From Gaiellales bacterium (GTDB lineage Bacteria; Actinomycetota; Thermoleophilia; Gaiellales; Gaiellaceae): DNA of 64,000 nt. The stretch spans positions 68,728 through 132,727 of the forward strand of contig JBBQXP010000001.1 of the NCBI GenBank assembly GCA_038209555.1, read 5' to 3'. Both the position numbers and the translations under genes were made by a program. Below, one piece after another: positions 20,377-57,301 of the stretch. Positions within the stretch are counted from its first letter, which is position 1. Each line of letters starts with the position of its first letter. Below the pieces are notes generated by a model. That model saw nothing but the letters and a program-made list of their open reading frames with translations, did not search any database and was not told where the DNA came from.

Positions 20377-20430
20377 TCTGCTTGGTCTGACCCGTCTCCG
20401 CGGGTACGCCAATTACCGAGCAATCATCTA
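20371..20430 (+). repeat. internally deleted 60-nt derivative of the palindromic intercistronic repeat (copy D)
   Basis: AGATGAT...CTTGGTCTGACCCGTC (exact 16-mer shared with copy B)...CGCCAATTACCGAGCAATCATCTA. The upstream TGA stop (20374-20376) lies inside its left terminus. Confidence 0.75.
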
Positions 20431-20449
20431 GGACCGTAAGATTCGAGCC

Positions 20450-46579: not shown

Positions 46580-46605
46580 CGCACCAAGTACCAATCAACC
46601 ATCTA
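46580..46605 (+). repeat. solo right-end fragment of the palindromic intercistronic repeat (copy E)
   Basis: CGCACCAAGTACCAATCAACCATCTA versus copy B CACGCCAATTACCGATCAACCATCTA, with an exact 12-mer ATCAACCATCTA. Lies 12 nt upstream of the gcvT GTG. Confidence 0.55.
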
Positions 46606-46617
46606 GGATCCGCCGCG

Positions 46618-47651: not shown

Positions 47652-48044
47652 GTGGCAGCCGCAGAGAGCTATCCCGAAGGGCTGAAGTACCACCCCGAGC
47701 ACGACTGGGCGAAGGTGGACGGCGACACGGCGACCATCGGGATCACCTGGTACGCCCAGGACGCGCTCGGCGAGATCGTGCACTTCGAGCCCCCGGAACA
47801 GGGAAGCTCCGTCGCCAAGGACGAGAGCTACGGAGAGGTCGAGTCGGTGAAGGCCGTATCCGACCTCGTCTCGCCGCTCTCCGGCGAGGTGACCGAGGTA
47901 AACCAGGCAGTCGTAGACGAGCCCGAGACGATCAACGAGGAGCCCTACGGGGATGGCTGGCTCATCAAGGTGCGGCTCTCGGATCCCTCGGAGGTCGATG
48001 GGCTTCTCGACGTCGCTGCCTACAAGGAACTGCTCACAGAGTAG
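47652..48044 (+). CDS. gcvH: glycine cleavage system protein H
   Basis: HDWAKVDGDTATIGIT and lipoyl-lysine motif ESVKAVSD. Confidence 0.93.
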   Translation: MAAAESYPEGLKYHPEHDWAKVDGDTATIGITWYAQDALGEIVHFEPPEQGSSVAKDESYGEVESVKAVSDLVSPLSGEVTEVNQAVVDEPETINEEPYGDGWLIKVRLSDPSEVDGLLDVAAYKELLTE

Positions 48045-48208
48045 ATGGCCGATCGACAATTACCGCACCCACGGATGGCGGCCCAGACACGGCGCCAGGC
48101 CGCACCCTCGCCCTTGGCAAGGCTTCTAGCCTTGCCCGCGGACGATGGCACCCCCTGGCTTGGTCTGGCCCGTCCCCGCGGGCACGCCAATAACCGATCG
48201 TCCATCTA
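48042..48208 (+). repeat. palindromic intercistronic repeat, full copy A (167 nt)
   Basis: Aligns end to end with 51040-51206 and with the reverse complement of 55825-55985. Begins with the gcvH stop TAG and ends 1 nt before the gcvPA GTG. Confidence 0.9.
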
Positions 48209-49543
48209 GTGAGCTACCTCTCCCTCACGGACGCCGACCGCGAGGCGATGCTCGAAGCGATCGGCGTCTCGTCCGTGGACGAGCTCTTCCGAGACATCCC
48301 GAAGAGCCTGCGCCTCGACCGTCCCCTCGCCCTGGAGCCGGCCCTTTCGGAGCAGGAGCTCGTCGAGCACCTCTCCGAGCTAGCGGCGAAGAACGTGTCC
48401 GTCTCGGAGGAGCTCTCGTTCCTCGGGGCTGGGATGTACGACCACTACGTTCCCGCGGTGGTCGACGCGATGCTCGCGCGCGGCGAGTTCCTGACAGCCT
48501 ACACGCCCTACCAGCCGGAGATGAGTCAGGGCGTCCTGCAGGCCATCTTCGAGTACCAGACAGTGATCTGCGAGCTGACCGGCATGGACGTCTCGAACGC
48601 ATCCGGCTACGACGGAACGACCGTTGCCGCCGACGCCTGCTACGTCGCCAAGTACGTCACCGGGCGGACCAAGGTCGTCCTCGCCGAGACGTTGAATCCG
48701 CAGACCCGGCAGGTCGTGAAGACGTATGCACCGGGGTTCGGGCTCGACGTCGTGGAGGTGCCGCATCGCGACGGCGTCGTTGACCCGGACGAGCTCCGGC
48801 GCGCCGCGGAGAATGCCGCGTGCGTCATCTTCCAGCAACCCAACTTCTTCGGCTGCCTCGAGCCGGCTCCCGATCTGGCTGCGGCGGCCAACGACGCCGA
48901 GGCGCTCGCGGTCGCCCATGTCGATCCGCTCTCCTTGGGTGTTCTGGAGGCACCGGGTGCCTATGGGTGCGCGATCGCGATCGGCGAGGGCCAGGGTGCC
49001 GGGAACTACCTCTCCTACGGCGGCCCGCATTACGGCTTCTTCGCAGCCCGGAAGGACTTCATCCGCCGGATGCCAGGCCGGATCATCGGTGAGACGACCG
49101 ACCTGGACGGCGAGCGTGGATTCGTCCTGACGCTACAAACGCGCGAGCAACACATCCGTCGCGAGAAGGCGACCCACAACATGACCACGAACCAGACGCT
49201 TCTCGCCCTGGCCGGCCTGATCTATCTGAGCTGGCTGGGTCCGCAGGGGCTCAGGGAGGTGGGCGAGACCTGCATGGGTCTCGGGGCCTACGCGAAGGAG
49301 CAACTCGGGCTCCAACCGGTGTTTCCAGATCAGACAACGTTCAAGGAGTTTGCCGTCCGCGTCGGACGGAGCGGCCAGGACGCGATCCGCGCCGCCCGCG
49401 AGCGCGGCGTCCATCCGGGATATGCGCTTGGCCGCGACTACCAGGGCTTGGACGATGCCCTGCTCGTCTGCGTGACAGAGAAGCGGACGCCGGCGGACAT
49501 CGACCGTTTGGCCGCCGTCTTGCAGGAGGTCGCGGCGGCGTGA
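48209..49543 (+). CDS. gcvPA: glycine dehydrogenase (decarboxylating) subunit 1
   Basis: N-terminus SYLSLTDADREAMLEAIGVSSVDELFRDIP matches the GcvPA start. Split P-protein arrangement. Confidence 0.92.
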   Translation: MSYLSLTDADREAMLEAIGVSSVDELFRDIPKSLRLDRPLALEPALSEQELVEHLSELAAKNVSVSEELSFLGAGMYDHYVPAVVDAMLARGEFLTAYTPYQPEMSQGVLQAIFEYQTVICELTGMDVSNASGYDGTTVAADACYVAKYVTGRTKVVLAETLNPQTRQVVKTYAPGFGLDVVEVPHRDGVVDPDELRRAAENAACVIFQQPNFFGCLEPAPDLAAAANDAEALAVAHVDPLSLGVLEAPGAYGCAIAIGEGQGAGNYLSYGGPHYGFFAARKDFIRRMPGRIIGETTDLDGERGFVLTLQTREQHIRREKATHNMTTNQTLLALAGLIYLSWLGPQGLREVGETCMGLGAYAKEQLGLQPVFPDQTTFKEFAVRVGRSGQDAIRAARERGVHPGYALGRDYQGLDDALLVCVTEKRTPADIDRLAAVLQEVAAA

Positions 49544-51039
49544 AGCTGATCTTCGAGAAGTCGCAATCTGGGCGCCGCGCCTCGCGCGTGCCGCGTTCCG
49601 ACCTGCCCAAGGTCGACATCCCGGAAGGGCTCCGGCGCGAGCGGCTTCCGCGGCTGCCCGAACTCGCCGAGCCCGAGGTCGTCAGGCACTTCACGGCGCT
49701 CGCCGATCGGACCTTCGGCGTTGACACGGGGTTCTACCCGCTCGGCTCGTGCACGATGAAGCACAACCCGCGGGTGAACGAGCGCCTCGTCATGCTGCCG
49801 GGCTTCCGCGATCTGCACCCACACCAGGAGGAGGAGGGATCGCAGGGCGCGCTCGAGCTGATGTGGCGGCTGCAGCAGATCCTCGCAGAGGTGGCGGGGC
49901 TCGACGCGGTCTCGCTCCAGCCTGCAGCCGGTTCACAGGGAGAGCTCACCGGGCTCATGCTCATGCGGGCCTACTTCGCCGACCGAGGCCAGGGCGAGCA
50001 GCGGACGACCGTGATCACCGCGGACACGGCCCACGGCACGAACCCTGCGAGCGTGACGATGTCGGGCTACCAGCTCAAGAAGGTCGAGACGGACGAGCGT
50101 GGGAACCTCGACCTCGATGACCTCCGCGCCAAGGTCGATGAAAGCACGGCCGGACTCATGCTCACGAATCCCTCGACGCTCGGCCTCTTCGACGAGCACA
50201 TCGAGGAGGTCGCGGAGATCTTCCACGATGCTGGAGCGCTCCTGTATTACGACGGCGCGAACCTGAACGCGGTCTGCGGCATCTCGCGCCCCGGTGATAT
50301 GGGCTTCGACATCATCCACTACAACCTCCACAAGACCTTCTCGCAACCGCATGGCGGGGGCGGGCCCGGCGGTGGGCCGGTGGCCGTGCGGGAGATTCTC
50401 GAGCCCTTCCTGCCCGCGCCGACGATCGTCCAGGAGGGCGATGCGTTCCGGCTCGACTACGACCGACCGAAGTCGATCGGCAAGGTCCGCGGCTTCTGCG
50501 GGCCGTTCGGCGTCTTCGTACGCTCCTACGCGTTTATCCGCGCGTACGGGCCGGGGCTCCGAGCCATGTCCGAGGCTGCCGTCCTGAACGCGAACTACAT
50601 GCTGGCAGGCCTCAGGGAGGTCTACGAGCTTCCGTTCGACCGGCTCTGCATGCACGAGTTCGTGCTCTCGGCACGCGGCCTGAAGCGGGAGCACGGCGTT
50701 AGCGCCCTCGATGTGGCCAAGCGGCTCATGGACTACGGATTCCACCCGCCGACGGTCTACTTTCCGCTGATCGTGCCCGAGGCACTCATGATCGAGCCGA
50801 CGGAGACGGAGGCGAAGGAGACGCTGGACGACTTCGTCGAGGCCATGCGGTCGATCGCCCGGGAGGCCGCCGAGGACCCCGGCTTGGTGAAGGACGCGCC
50901 CCATAGCCGGCCCGTTCGCCGGCTCGATGAGGTCAAGGCCGCGAAGCGCGCGATCGTCAAGTATGGGTTCGAGGAGCACCCAGACCTGTCCGGTCGGCCC
51001 GCCGCGGGTGAGGCGCTCGAGGCACAGAAGGGCGCTTAG
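49540..51039 (+). CDS. gcvPB: glycine dehydrogenase (decarboxylating) subunit 2
   Basis: LGSCTMKHNP and PLP-lysine region NLHKTFSQPHGGGGPG. GTGA overlap with gcvPA. Confidence 0.92.
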   Translation: MKLIFEKSQSGRRASRVPRSDLPKVDIPEGLRRERLPRLPELAEPEVVRHFTALADRTFGVDTGFYPLGSCTMKHNPRVNERLVMLPGFRDLHPHQEEEGSQGALELMWRLQQILAEVAGLDAVSLQPAAGSQGELTGLMLMRAYFADRGQGEQRTTVITADTAHGTNPASVTMSGYQLKKVETDERGNLDLDDLRAKVDESTAGLMLTNPSTLGLFDEHIEEVAEIFHDAGALLYYDGANLNAVCGISRPGDMGFDIIHYNLHKTFSQPHGGGGPGGGPVAVREILEPFLPAPTIVQEGDAFRLDYDRPKSIGKVRGFCGPFGVFVRSYAFIRAYGPGLRAMSEAAVLNANYMLAGLREVYELPFDRLCMHEFVLSARGLKREHGVSALDVAKRLMDYGFHPPTVYFPLIVPEALMIEPTETEAKETLDDFVEAMRSIAREAAEDPGLVKDAPHSRPVRRLDEVKAAKRAIVKYGFEEHPDLSGRPAAGEALEAQKGA

Positions 51040-51206
51040 TAGATGGTTGATCGGTAATTGCCGCACCCCCGGATGGCGGCCCAGACACGGCGCCAGGCCG
51101 CACCCTCGCCCTTGTCAAGGCTTCTAGCCTTGCCTGCGGACGATGGCGCACCCTGGCTTGGTCTGACCCGTCCCCGAGGTCACGCCAATTACCGATCAAC
51201 CATCTA
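51040..51206 (+). repeat. palindromic intercistronic repeat, full copy B (167 nt, perfect 21-nt termini)
   Basis: TAGATGGTTGATCGGTAATTG...CAATTACCGATCAACCATCTA. Central hairpin CAAGGCT-TCT-AGCCTTG. Starts right after the gcvPB TAG and ends 2 nt before the next GTG. Confidence 0.92.
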
Positions 51207-54681: not shown

Positions 54682-55523
54682 TCAGACCTCGCGGTAGCGA
54701 GCGCGCGCGAGGCAGAAGACGCCATAGGCGAGGAGCCCCGCTGCGACGAGCCCGAGCAGGGCATCGCCGTACGAGTGCGATGCAAGCTTCTGCAGGGCGC
54801 CGTCGATCCCGATCGCCTCGTCCGGGTCGTAGTCGAGCGCCGCCTTGACGAGGAAGACACCGACGAGGCCGAAGACGATTCCCCGCGCCACGTGTCCGAC
54901 CAGACCCGTCCGCCGAATCCAGCGGCGGCCGGCCTCGTTCATCTCCTCCGTCTTCATGTCCTTGAGGAAGCGGTACGACAGGCCCTTGTAGACGTTCCAG
55001 AGCCCGTAGCCCAGGACTCCGAGGCCGACGGCAGTCACGAGCGCGACGCCGCCGGGCCAGTCGAGCACCACTGCAGCTGCCTTGCCCTGCTTGTTGCCGC
55101 CGCCCGAGCTGCCCGCATCGAGGACGATCGAGACGGCAGTCCAGCAGAGGCTTGCGTAGACCAGTCCGCGCGCTGCGTAGACAAGGCGCTTGCCGGCCCT
55201 ACGTCCTCGCCGTGCTCGACCTTCTCGCCGAGCGCCGCAATGACGAAACGCCAGAGAGCGTAGCCGCCGAGGCCGATCGCGAGCAGCACGAGCAACCACT
55301 TCCCCCAACTTTCGCTCGCGAGCGTCCGGAGGGCGCCGTGCTGGTCGGTTGTCTTGCCGCCCTGATCGAGGGCGACGCCGATCGCGAGCACGGCGACGAT
55401 GCCGTAGAGGAGGCCCTGGGCGACCATCCCGAAGCGGGCGAGCCACTCCACCCACGGACTGCGGGCGGCTTGCCTGGCCTTTCGTCCGGGGGCCGAGGCG
55501 TCGAGAGTCGTGTCCCAGGCCAT
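54682..55523 (-). pseudogene. DUF1206-domain membrane protein interrupted by a frameshift near 55190-55215
   Basis: The N-terminal part (MAWDTT...GEKVEHGEDV) is in the frame of ORF 55035..55523. The remaining DUF1206-like repeats (KRLVYAARGLVYASLCW...ARARYREV) are in the frame of ORF 54682..55743. Span is 842 nt, not a multiple of 3. Confidence 0.6.
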
Positions 55524-55568
55524 GCCCCGGTCTAGCCAGGAGCAGCCGCGCCCAACCCAGGCGCGCGG

Positions 55569-55823
55569 CTACTCGCGGATCTCGAGCGTCCGAACCCCTC
55601 CAAGGTCGATCCATGTGCGACCGGGTGCGCGCACGATGCGAAAAAGGACGCTCGAGCACGTCCGGCAGCGGACAACTGTTCCAGGCGCACGCAGGTAGAC
55701 CACTACTTCGGCGATGGGACCGATCGCCCCGCACGCTCTGCATACCACCGTCGAGACGGTCATCTCGATGCCAAAGATCTCGAGAAGCTCGCCTCCGATC
55801 GCGTTTCCGTCCAGGTCAATCAT
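55569..55823 (-). CDS. small CxxC...CxxC protein resembling the DUF6510 family
   Basis: MIDLDGNAIGGELLEIFG...CRACGA...YLRAPGTVVRCRTC. Last gene of the Moco/FAD oxidoreductase operon. Confidence 0.75.
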   Translation of the reverse strand: MIDLDGNAIGGELLEIFGIEMTVSTVVCRACGAIGPIAEVVVYLRAPGTVVRCRTCSSVLFRIVRAPGRTWIDLGGVRTLEIRE

Positions 55824-55824
55824 C

Positions 55825-55985
55825 TAGATGGTTGGTCGGTAATTGGCGTGCCCGCGGGGGCGGGCCAGACCAAGCCAGGGTGTGCCATCGCCCGTAGGCA
55901 AGGCTAGAAGCCTTGACAAGGGTGAGGGTGGGCGCCGTGTCTGGGCCGCCATCCGAGGGTGTGGTAATTGTCGATCAAACATCTA
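55825..55985 (-). repeat. palindromic intercistronic repeat, full copy C (161 nt, minus-strand orientation)
   Basis: The reverse complement aligns with copies A and B with one 6-nt deletion. Its first 3 nt are the stop TAG (55985-55983) of the upstream minus-strand gene. It ends 1 nt before the ATG at 55823. Confidence 0.9.
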
Positions 55986-56729
55986 ACCACCGGTCGCTCC
56001 GAAGCGCTCTGTCCTGATGCTCGCCGGCGCGTACCCGACCTCGACGAGCGCATCGGCCGCCGTCTCGACGAACGACGTCGGCCCGCACACGAACGCCCGG
56101 GCCGCCCTCTCGGGCGGCCAGGCAACCTCGCCTAGCATTTCGACGTCCAGGCGACGGGCGTACCCGGCCCAGCCGGGCGGCTGCGAGCGAGTCAGCGTGT
56201 GGACGACCTCGACCCTCGTATCCTCGGCCAAGCGCTCGAGCTCATCCTGGTAGATCACGTCCTCCCAGGCACGCGACGAGTAGAGAAGCCGTGCCGGCAC
56301 ATCGCTCCCGGACGCCGCGCGGTGGCGGAGCATCGCCATGAGCGGGACGACGCCCGAGCCGCCGGCGACCAGCAGCAGGGGGCAGTCCGTCGAGGCCTCC
56401 CAGACGAAGTACCCGCCGATCGGACCGCGGATCTCCAGTCCGTCGCCGGCCCGAAGCTCGTCGGCAAGGTAAGGCGACACCTCGCCGTCGTCGAGGCGCT
56501 CGACCGTGATTGCGAGAGGCTCCCCCGGCGCCGAGGCGATCGAGTAGCTTCGCTGCGCCTGATAGCCGTCCTCGGCGGTCAGGCGCACGTCGAGGTGCTG
56601 GCCGGCCCGGTGTCCCGGCCAGGCCGGCGCGTCGAGGACGATCGTGACCACGCGTGCGGTCTCCCGAACGGAGTCCGTGACCTCGGCGACCTGCCACGTC
56701 AGTCGCCCCAGTACCGCTGTTCCTGCCAC
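55983..56729 (-). CDS. ferredoxin-reductase-type FAD/NAD(P)-binding oxidoreductase
   Basis: GQHLDVRLTAEDGYQAQRSYSIAS (RxYS FAD motif), LLVAGGSGVVP, FVCGP. Start uncertain (GTG 56729, CTG 56702 or ATG 56810). Confidence 0.85.
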   Translation of the reverse strand: MAGTAVLGRLTWQVAEVTDSVRETARVVTIVLDAPAWPGHRAGQHLDVRLTAEDGYQAQRSYSIASAPGEPLAITVERLDDGEVSPYLADELRAGDGLEIRGPIGGYFVWEASTDCPLLLVAGGSGVVPLMAMLRHRAASGSDVPARLLYSSRAWEDVIYQDELERLAEDTRVEVVHTLTRSQPPGWAGYARRLDVEMLGEVAWPPERAARAFVCGPTSFVETAADALVEVGYAPASIRTERFGATGG

Positions 56730-57301
56730 GGATCGCCACGAAGATGGTAGCCGTTCGACTCCCAGAAGCCAGGTTCGTCCTCGTCCCGAAGCGCGAGGCC
56801 GCGCACCCATTTAGCGCTCTTCCAGAAGTAGAGATGCGGGACGAGGAGTCGTGCCGGTCCTCCGTGCTCAGGCTCGAGAGGCTCCCCGTTGAACGTGTAG
56901 GCGACCCACGCCTTGCCGTCGGTCACGTCCTCAAGCGGCAGGTTCGTCGTGTAGTCGCCGTCGCAGAACGCCACCACGTACGAGGCGTCGTGGTCCCCTC
57001 GGGCGAGCAGCGTGTCGACCGAGACTCCCTCCCAGGTCGTGTCGAGTTTCGACCACTTCGTGACGCAGTGGATGTCCTTCGTGATCGGCTCGCTCGGAAG
57101 ATCCTGAAACTCTTCCCAGGTCCAGGTGACAGGCTCGGCGCCGCCCTGGATCGAGAACGTCCAGTCGTCGAGCGGCGTCCGGGGCGTCGGGCCGGCCGAG
57201 AGGACTGGGAAGTCGTCGACGAGGTACTGACCGGGGGGAATCCGGTCGCCCTGACCGTCGTCCCGTCGCCGGCCGCGGAAGCCGCGTGAGACGAAGCTCA
57301 T
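56699..57301 (-). CDS. sulfite-oxidase-like molybdopterin-dependent oxidoreductase
   Basis: DIHCVTKWSKLDTTWEGV, EHGGPARLLVPHLYFWKSAKWV. Confidence 0.88.
   Translation of the reverse strand: MSFVSRGFRGRRRDDGQGDRIPPGQYLVDDFPVLSAGPTPRTPLDDWTFSIQGGAEPVTWTWEEFQDLPSEPITKDIHCVTKWSKLDTTWEGVSVDTLLARGDHDASYVVAFCDGDYTTNLPLEDVTDGKAWVAYTFNGEPLEPEHGGPARLLVPHLYFWKSAKWVRGLALRDEDEPGFWESNGYHLRGDPWQEQRYWGD

Follow-up and report, generated by a model that had tools for sequence, protein, structure and literature searches.

At a junction of an operon read from the minus strand, the 64,000-nt stretch of Gaiellales DNA analysed here ("the window", in whose numbering all coordinates without a contig label are given) carries a repeat, copy C, between the gene of a FAD/NAD reductase and a DUF6510 gene. 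Further upstream in the same operon, an Oxidored_molyb gene (56699..57301) shares a 4-nt overlap with a radical-SAM/RlmN gene, by the coordinates of their ORFs. The features of the junction, in the direction of transcription, are as follows.

55983..56810, minus strand: upstream gene, FAD/NAD(P)-binding oxidoreductase with FAD_binding_6 and NAD_binding_1 domains; stop codon TAG at 55985-55983
55825..55985, minus strand: copy C of the repeat (a MITE, as argued below), 161 nt including the flanking TA at both ends; nhmmer 176 bits, model positions 1-167
55962..55985, minus strand: left terminal inverted repeat (TIR) of copy C, TA/GATGTTTGATCGACAATTACCA
55824..55982, minus strand: element-spanning ORF of copy C, 52 codons (52 aa) from ATG to TAG; the family consensus has 54
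55899..55915, minus strand: central hairpin of copy C, CAAGGC-TTCTA-GCCTTG, the center of a ~50-nt core that is common to a second MITE family
55825..55848, minus strand: right terminal inverted repeat of copy C, CGCCAATTACCGACCAACCATC/TA
55569..55823, minus strand: downstream gene, DUF6510 protein (Pfam E=8e-31); ATG at 55823

The minus strand at copy C reads ...ggtggtTAG/ATGTTTGATCGACAATTACC...CCAACCATCTA/G/ATGATT. Each end of the element is woven into its neighbor: on the left, TA and the G that follows it are the stop codon of the oxidoreductase gene (whose real start is likely near 56729), that is, the stop codon consists of the element's first 3 nt, and the ATG at 55982-55980 starts the element's own ORF; on the right, the terminal TA and the G at 55824 form the in-frame TAG that closes this ORF. 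The ATG of the DUF6510 gene follows 1 nt past copy C, and no Shine-Dalgarno-like sequence remains 5' of it. The preliminary description of this DNA had placed the start of copy C on the upstream stop codon and its end 1 nt before the next ATG, and had called the downstream gene DUF6510-like: the ORF coordinates bear out the former and the Pfam match the latter. It had also reported 6 nt missing relative to the two other copies, A and B, in the window. Alignment confirms this loss: the hexamer AGGCCG, at the 55931/55930 junction, is the sole gap with respect to A and B, and the consensus drawn from all 46 sites of the genome scan described below contains it too. The loss costs the ORF two codons and, as had been asserted, preserves the phase of the element-spanning frame, which stays open. 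We take it to be a mere in-frame deletion that would leave the passage of ribosomes from gene to gene intact. What the earlier description did not contain is the nature of the element, a TA-duplicating MITE with TAG/ATG and ATC/TAG built into its terminal inverted repeats, and two remnants, D and E, of the same family elsewhere in the window.

48042..48208, plus strand: MITE copy A, between gcvH (stop TAG 48042-48044) and gcvPA (GTG 48209)
51040..51206, plus strand: MITE copy B, with gcvPB upstream (stop 51037-51039) and a Ser_hydrolase gene downstream (GTG 51209)
20380..20431, plus strand: remnant D, 52 nt from the 3' end of the element, in sense orientation between two co-directional genes
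46582..46606, plus strand: remnant E, the right-end repeat on its own (22/25 match); the start of gcvT is 12 nt downstream

Copy C is 87% identical to A and B over 167-168 nt (BLAST E 1e-55 to 1e-56), far beyond chance. The ORF of copy A (48045..48209) is intact at 54 codons, and four relatives lack the element at this site; the ORF of copy B is broken by a TAA at codon 5 (CAA>TAA). Remnant E is common to contigs L109 and L110, and its place is taken by other sequence of equal length in L111 and L112. The gcv operon of the window thus holds three pieces of the family, all of them sense. Strand-specific insertion coupled to replication is an unlikely source of such order, because A and B (plus strand) and C (minus strand), 5-8 kb apart, point in opposite absolute directions, each with its own operon.

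How widely is the element distributed? A 21-base pattern, run against one genome per species, yielded 47 loci, all but one of them from Gaiellaceae or uncultured actinomycete metagenome-assembled genomes (MAGs; 25 of the contigs represent a single MAG). The exception, L046 from Bryobacterales, was rejected as a chance match to the search pattern. A scan of metagenomes with the central 24 bases added 51 loci. Profile searching recovered 49 full-length copies in the window and the Gaiellaceae MAGs and 39 in soil metagenomes, nearly all exactly 167 nt long, and clustering of the flanks resolved the collection into 60 independent insertion sites. The element is an imperfect palindrome over its full length, with terminal inverted repeats of ~21 nt (TAGATGGTTGATCGGTAATTG / CAATTACCGATCAACCATCTA); in copy B the inverted arms extend over 42 nt with 79% complementarity, and the entire element folds as a single hairpin. 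It is small (161-167 nt), has no transposase gene, its sole ORF (52-54 aa) has no Pfam match, and its 60 independent sites are at unrelated loci. The dinucleotide TA flanks it at 44 of 60 left and 35 of 60 right ends, and the target at these TA-flanked ends is C-TA-G (C at position -1 in 29/44, G at +1 in 26/35); in a host genome of 67% GC, the TA sites at which insertion is tolerated are mostly stop codons at gene junctions. We therefore regard the repeat, with considerable confidence, as a TA-duplicating MITE of the Gaiellaceae.

Deletion derivatives accompany the full-length copies. One, of ~86 nt, lacks its interior and retains an ORF that runs from ATG to a TGA overlapping the next gene's ATG (L016:984-1069); three stubs of ~48 nt consist of the two terminal repeats joined to each other (L002:3658-3706, L026:4499-4549 and L082:2223-2268). 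A fuzzy search for pairs of these termini 0.7-3 kb apart in ~650 kb of related DNA found only the MITEs and their deletion derivatives: no autonomous IS with these termini and no IS630-type transposase with matching termini turned up there. CTAG with duplication of the TA is the classical target of IS630, and because the target here is TA/CTAG, mobilization by a transposase of the IS630/Tc1-mariner type is suggested. Searches for other functional features were negative: the Rfam 15 covariance models match nothing anywhere in the window, scans for tRNA, tmRNA and promoters detect nothing in the element, and no intrinsic terminator is found in it, the only terminator-like site in 55400-56400 lying within the DUF6510 gene. 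At one site (L035:1218-1384), the flanking ORFs come into frame with each other once the element and one TA are removed; this copy may have split one membrane-protein gene rather than landed between two.

Comparison of filled with empty sites bears on the mode of insertion. At site B, contig L110, which reads GCC TA[GATGG...CCATC TA]ACTTGCG, gives GCCTAACTTGCG upon removal of the element, matching the empty site of L112 (GCTTAACTTGCG): this is an exact TA duplication, and it lies within a TAA stop codon. Around site C, relatives encoding DUF6510 proteins of 86-89% identity keep the order of the genes and have no element. That copy C splits a tight junction and leaves both genes undamaged, as the preliminary description had it, is upheld by what these relatives have in its stead: TAG/ATG, TGATG or TAAcgATG (in full, ATC TAG/ATG GAG in L051-L053, GGGTGATGG in L048-L050 and TAAcgATG in L054). 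The empty TAG/ATG is consistent with TA duplication. Site A fits less well: at the gcvH/gcvPA junction (window 48042-48209 against L109-L112:4885-4900), four relatives read GAGTGAGC, a GTGA overlap with no TA, and the net insertion is 168 nt in place of the 165 expected from TA duplication, an excess of 3 nt that is a misfit to the model. TA duplication would predict an empty gcvH/gcvPA junction of GAGTAGTGAGC in closer relatives. A 3-bp target duplication was considered and rejected in a comparison by eye: AGT fits site A and fails at site C.

Several smaller observations belong to these sites. The left junction of copy B (window 51037-51045) is TAGTAGATGG where L110:7718-7726 has TAGATGG, a 3-nt duplication of TAG. 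The ORF at site B has been broken separately in two lineages, by CAA>TAA in the window and by a frameshift in L110. The element's last six bases, CATCTA, also occur at nominally "empty" sites: L111:7722-7733 reads ACATACATCTAC at site B, and L051-L053 (L051:2992-3000) read GGCATCTAG at site C. Such sites may be scars of deleted elements (L051 possibly so), and if the scars are real, then some of the empty sites are secondary.

The element's termini spell out the signals that start and stop translation. In TA/GATGG...CCATC/TA, the left TA with its G is TAG, and the ATG that comes next (bases 4-6) opens a 54-codon frame across the whole element, to close on the trinucleotide composed of the right TA and the first flanking base; this stop abuts or overlaps the start codon of the downstream gene. 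That trinucleotide is an in-frame stop at 47/60 sites (TAG at 26, TGA at 14, TAA at 7), and when the right end reads TG in place of TA, the next base is A without exception (14/14), giving TGA. A left-end variant, CTGATGG, is present at three or four independent sites; the simplest reading is that 1 nt has been lost (TAGATG>TGATG), with both the upstream stop and the ATG retained. Read in the reverse orientation, the element offers ATG GTT GGT CGG TAA, a frame that in 54/60 copies is shut at codon 5. In one copy, L063:1295-1509, at a site orthologous to that of L023/L097, 48 nt (16 codons) of the central core are duplicated in tandem; the ORF remains open, and the closing TGA overlaps the downstream ATG. 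It is tempting to see in this duplication, and in the 6-nt deletion of copy C, a general rule that indels respect the frame, and the preliminary description proposed just such a bias to multiples of three. The census does not sustain it: among copies in sense contexts these two indels (-6 and +48) are in frame and five or six are frameshifting (L040, L018/L104, L078, L098 and L083), which is no enrichment over the chance expectation of 1/3.

The preliminary description had also remarked that copy C is oriented with transcription, and in this regard copy C turns out to exemplify the family: where the element is inserted between co-directional genes it is sense at 37 of 41 independent sites and antisense at four (binomial p=1e-7). 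With only the upstream gene considered, 48 sites are sense and 10 antisense. The ORF was scored as intact if its start is present and a stop follows at +1 to +7; by this measure 41/48 copies preceded by a sense gene and 4/10 preceded by an antisense gene retain it, a difference that is significant (Fisher p=0.005) with the proviso that it rests on 10 antisense sites only. In most sense copies the upstream gene stops at the element's own TAG or at a TGA at element positions 9-11. (A technical note: the flanking genes were called by codon usage, with a log-likelihood model that had been trained on 65 long ORFs and that reproduces the Pfam-supported genes of the window; it replaced scoring of frames by the GC difference between codon positions, which chose spurious frames. 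Calls of gene orientation were checked against Pfam in the window only; the antisense cases were checked by eye, and their flanks are recognizable enzymes: AhcY, a GT2 glycosyltransferase, TsaE and others.)

At 24/60 sites the downstream gene starts 0-3 nt beyond the element. The sequences before starts at most 3 nt from the element have a mean complementarity to the anti-Shine-Dalgarno sequence of +0.1 kcal/mol, and none is at or below -6, as against -4.5 for other genes. These abutting genes have no Shine-Dalgarno sequence, and a ribosome arriving from upstream would therefore be their sole initiation signal. (Called Gaiellaceae starts as a whole are hardly different from random 20-mers in this measure, at -4.5 vs -4.2 kcal/mol; the near-random signal reflects either weak use of Shine-Dalgarno sequences in this lineage or imprecise start calls.)

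The metagenome scan also brought to light a second family, at nine loci (L070, L074, L075, L077, L085, L088, L102, L105 and L107), of which L088 has no right end, leaving eight usable copies. Its members are 166 nt long (e.g., L107:117-282) and have only the central ~50 nt (GGCGCC..CACCCTCGCCCTTGNCAAGGCTTCTAGCCTTGCCTGCGG) in common with the family of the window; the arms and termini, TA/GTGCCCC...GGGGCAC/TA, are unrelated. The frame is nevertheless laid out in the same way: it is 162 nt long (54 codons), its GTG stands right behind the TA, and its stop, TAG or TGA, comes immediately beyond the right end; it is intact in 7/8 copies, and the upstream gene is sense in 6/6. The recurrence of this end-to-end design with different termini is the strongest sign that the frame is a selected property of the elements. 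(A conserved interior between differing termini is the opposite of the usual pattern for MITEs.)

A mechanism can be proposed that would make a virtue of this construction. The element inserts into a TA, by preference within C-TA-G, and duplicates it; the left TA and the G of the element rebuild the upstream TAG stop. In the sense orientation, ribosomes that finish the upstream gene would re-initiate at the element's ATG, read through the element, melting its hairpin as they go, and come to the end of its frame at the start of the downstream gene, where they would begin anew: one coupled stop-start junction would have become two, and expression of the operon would survive. An antisense insertion instead presents a frame that is shut at codon 5 and a stronger hairpin, and would be removed by selection; the 37:4 bias would be the consequence of that removal. 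A Gaiellaceae MITE at operon junctions, whose relay ORF preserves translational coupling, appears to us the best overall explanation, and one that we hold to be somewhat better than even. A narrower proposition, whose chances we would put at about even, is that the element owes its orientation, and the tolerance that it enjoys, to the relay ORF. We infer that the encoded peptide itself has no function.

Why should translation be invoked at all, if the RNA folds so differently on the two strands? The mean MFE is -82 kcal/mol for the sense strand and -113 for the antisense, and sense is the weaker in 49/49 copies, by about 30 kcal/mol, because mismatches that are A.C on the sense strand are G.U on the other. 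For copy C, the sense fold is -68.5 kcal/mol (z=-1.65; 12/200 shuffles fold as well), the antisense fold -94.8 kcal/mol (z=-4.9), and the second family is asymmetric in the same sense. RNA structure, and not translation, might on these grounds cause the orientation bias: a near-perfect antisense hairpin of ~80 bp would block ribosomes or attract RNase III, only sense insertions would survive in operons, and the ORF would be a by-product of GC-rich sequence, as the absence of constraint on the peptide would also allow. Such an account does not say why, in both families, a start should occupy the first bases and an in-frame stop the last, why right ends in TG should always yield TGA, why frameshifts and lost stops should cluster in copies with no sense gene before them, or how downstream genes with no Shine-Dalgarno sequence, at the foot of a hairpin of -63 kcal/mol in copy C and of -82 on average in the family, could dispense with a passing ribosome. 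We judge it rather unlikely on the whole. The two explanations are not mutually exclusive: the sense bias could equally stem from the weaker sense-strand hairpin, an effect that sequence alone cannot separate from that of the relay, and probably the two act together.

If the ORF is translated, might its product be what matters? The frame is open in most copies, it has equal length in the two families, and both encode a central motif, PSPL(S/P)RLLALPA, so that a functional small protein of 52-54 aa, spreading as a selfish mini-gene, deserves a hearing. The motif adds no evidence at the level of protein, because the core that encodes it is identical in nucleotide sequence. Synonymous and non-synonymous changes are found in the proportions that chance would give, and the peptide is not conserved; orthologous copies show no codon-phase pattern; the peptide matches nothing in Pfam even at E<=10; and only three predicted proteins among 5.8 billion in a protein database match it. 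(The last figure has a practical side: MITE copies create 54-codon ORFs that annotation pipelines miss and leave unannotated.) A functional protein is thus a most improbable explanation. A depletion of nonsense codons, which might have been cited as evidence, had to be dropped: when every occurrence is counted, one nonsense substitution is observed and 8.3 are expected (P=0.002), a result that depends on counting shared polymorphisms as independent events, and with singletons or rare variants, two are observed and 3.2-4.5 expected, which is not significant.

A different kind of usefulness, domestication by the host as cis-acting intercistronic RNA or DNA elements (for instance, sites of mRNA processing or stability, or of protein binding), is brought to mind by the copies' persistence. 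Orthologous copies, recognized by shared derived changes, are retained across lineages whose flanks are only 84-93% identical, and they have diverged 2-5 times less than the flanking third codon positions (identity 0.87-0.98 vs 0.67-0.84), again with no codon-phase pattern; two families whose termini are unrelated have an almost identical core of ~50 nt. The slow divergence implies either constraint at the level of nucleotides or gene conversion among copies, and conversion among ~100 copies, or repeated insertion at a few sites, could mimic constraint. Nor does the palindrome behave as a structure under maintenance: of the singleton substitutions, 36 turn a Watson-Crick pair into a mismatch, 15 lead to A.C and 14 to G.T, so that base pairs are not preferentially kept, and the RNAalifold covariation term is negligible (+0.32), providing no sign that structure has been preserved in evolution after insertion. 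(An excess of A.C over G.T, 165 vs 34, was discarded as a signal of structure: it comes from a few high-frequency subfamily polymorphisms, and the corresponding counts for singletons are 15 vs 14.) No Rfam family matches, and many sites decay to stubs and scars. We consider domestication improbable. A composite of these ideas is more speculative than our preferred explanation, the relay, and less improbable than domestication pure and simple: one can think of "operon-compatible" transposons, in which selection at the level of the element has shaped terminal repeats that contain stop and start at one end and stop at the other, with a translated cistron between them, so that junctions are colonized without polarity, and whose core, perhaps as a translated hairpin, has been co-opted by the host to tune the ratio or the stability of cistrons. 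Co-option of the core would follow from the ~50 nt shared between families, the 54 codons common to both, and the 2-5-fold slower evolution of orthologues; we offer it as a possibility, and a somewhat doubtful one.

To what known elements can the relay be compared? The MIRUs (mycobacterial interspersed repetitive units) that Supply et al. described in 1997 are reportedly 46-101-bp direct repeats, often in tandem, with no terminal inverted repeats and no TA duplication. Set against that description, by which the comparison is made, our element, a palindromic MITE of 167 nt, occurs singly, has terminal inverted repeats and TA duplication, and does not form tandem arrays. The likeness is one of placement and of manner. 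MIRUs are proposed, in PMC12548453 (citing Supply et al. 1997), to have a short intercistronic ORF that is coupled to its neighbors, and their insertion to affect expression barely at all; as in that account, the element here has an Actinomycetota host, occupies intercistronic positions in operons, is oriented with the genes, and carries a short ORF that at its two ends abuts or overlaps the stop and the start of its neighbors, with coupling and a nearly neutral insertion proposed in both cases. The two seem to have converged on one trick rather than to belong to the same group.

In anatomy the closer parallels are ERIC/IRU and the Correia (NEMIS) elements of Neisseria, TA-duplicating bacterial MITEs of 100-170 nt with terminal inverted repeats and TA termini (PMC2229807, PMC2759123), which share with the element a long RNA stem-loop and frequent overlap with the 3' ends of genes. 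They are co-transcribed with their neighbors, some carry ORFs that fuse to genes, and ERIC has orientation-dependent effects in Yersinia (PMC2229807, PMC2759123). They insert in both orientations, however, and their ORFs are not reported to be a cistron that fills the element exactly from start to stop, whereas here the start and stop codons are in the terminal repeats and 90% of the operon insertions are sense; they are also unrelated in sequence, and their hosts belong to another phylum. With MITEs derived from IS630/Tc1-mariner elements, the element shares TA duplication and a preference for the palindromic target C-TA-G. The RPEs of Rickettsia and QMITEs of Coxiella are palindromic, MITE-like repeats whose open frames permit life in, or at the ends of, coding regions (PMC5896051); RPEs insert in frame inside genes and join the protein, whereas our element keeps to the space between genes as a cistron of its own. 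REP/REPIN sequences are not a match: they are palindromes of 20-40 nt (an inverted pair in the case of REPIN) with no target duplication and with a RAYT transposase associated, and the element differs from them in size, in its terminal repeats and in duplicating TA. As far as these comparisons reach, TA termini and their duplication, a long RNA stem-loop, overlap with the 3' ends of genes and the carriage of ORFs are standard for bacterial MITEs such as ERIC, Correia and QMITE, the idea of a relay ORF has been proposed for MIRUs, and their combination in an element with terminal inverted repeats is new.

A relay ORF of this kind, so far tied to the MIRUs of mycobacteria, would thereby be extended to a TA-duplicating MITE in a deep, uncultured lineage of actinobacteria, and it is suggested that mobile DNA has repeatedly solved the problem of life within operons by being translatable. 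The ~40 sense operon junctions constitute a natural test bed for termination and re-initiation across a very stable hairpin, with antisense and decayed copies as built-in controls.

Finally, the family makes itself felt in the assembly of genomes. Contigs that are 100% identical to the window are present in NCBI assembly GCA_965609255.1. Two short-read contigs with the same 100% identity, L055 (end 3019) and L056 (end 1328), break inside copy A; this family of MITEs thus fragments short-read assemblies of Gaiellaceae.
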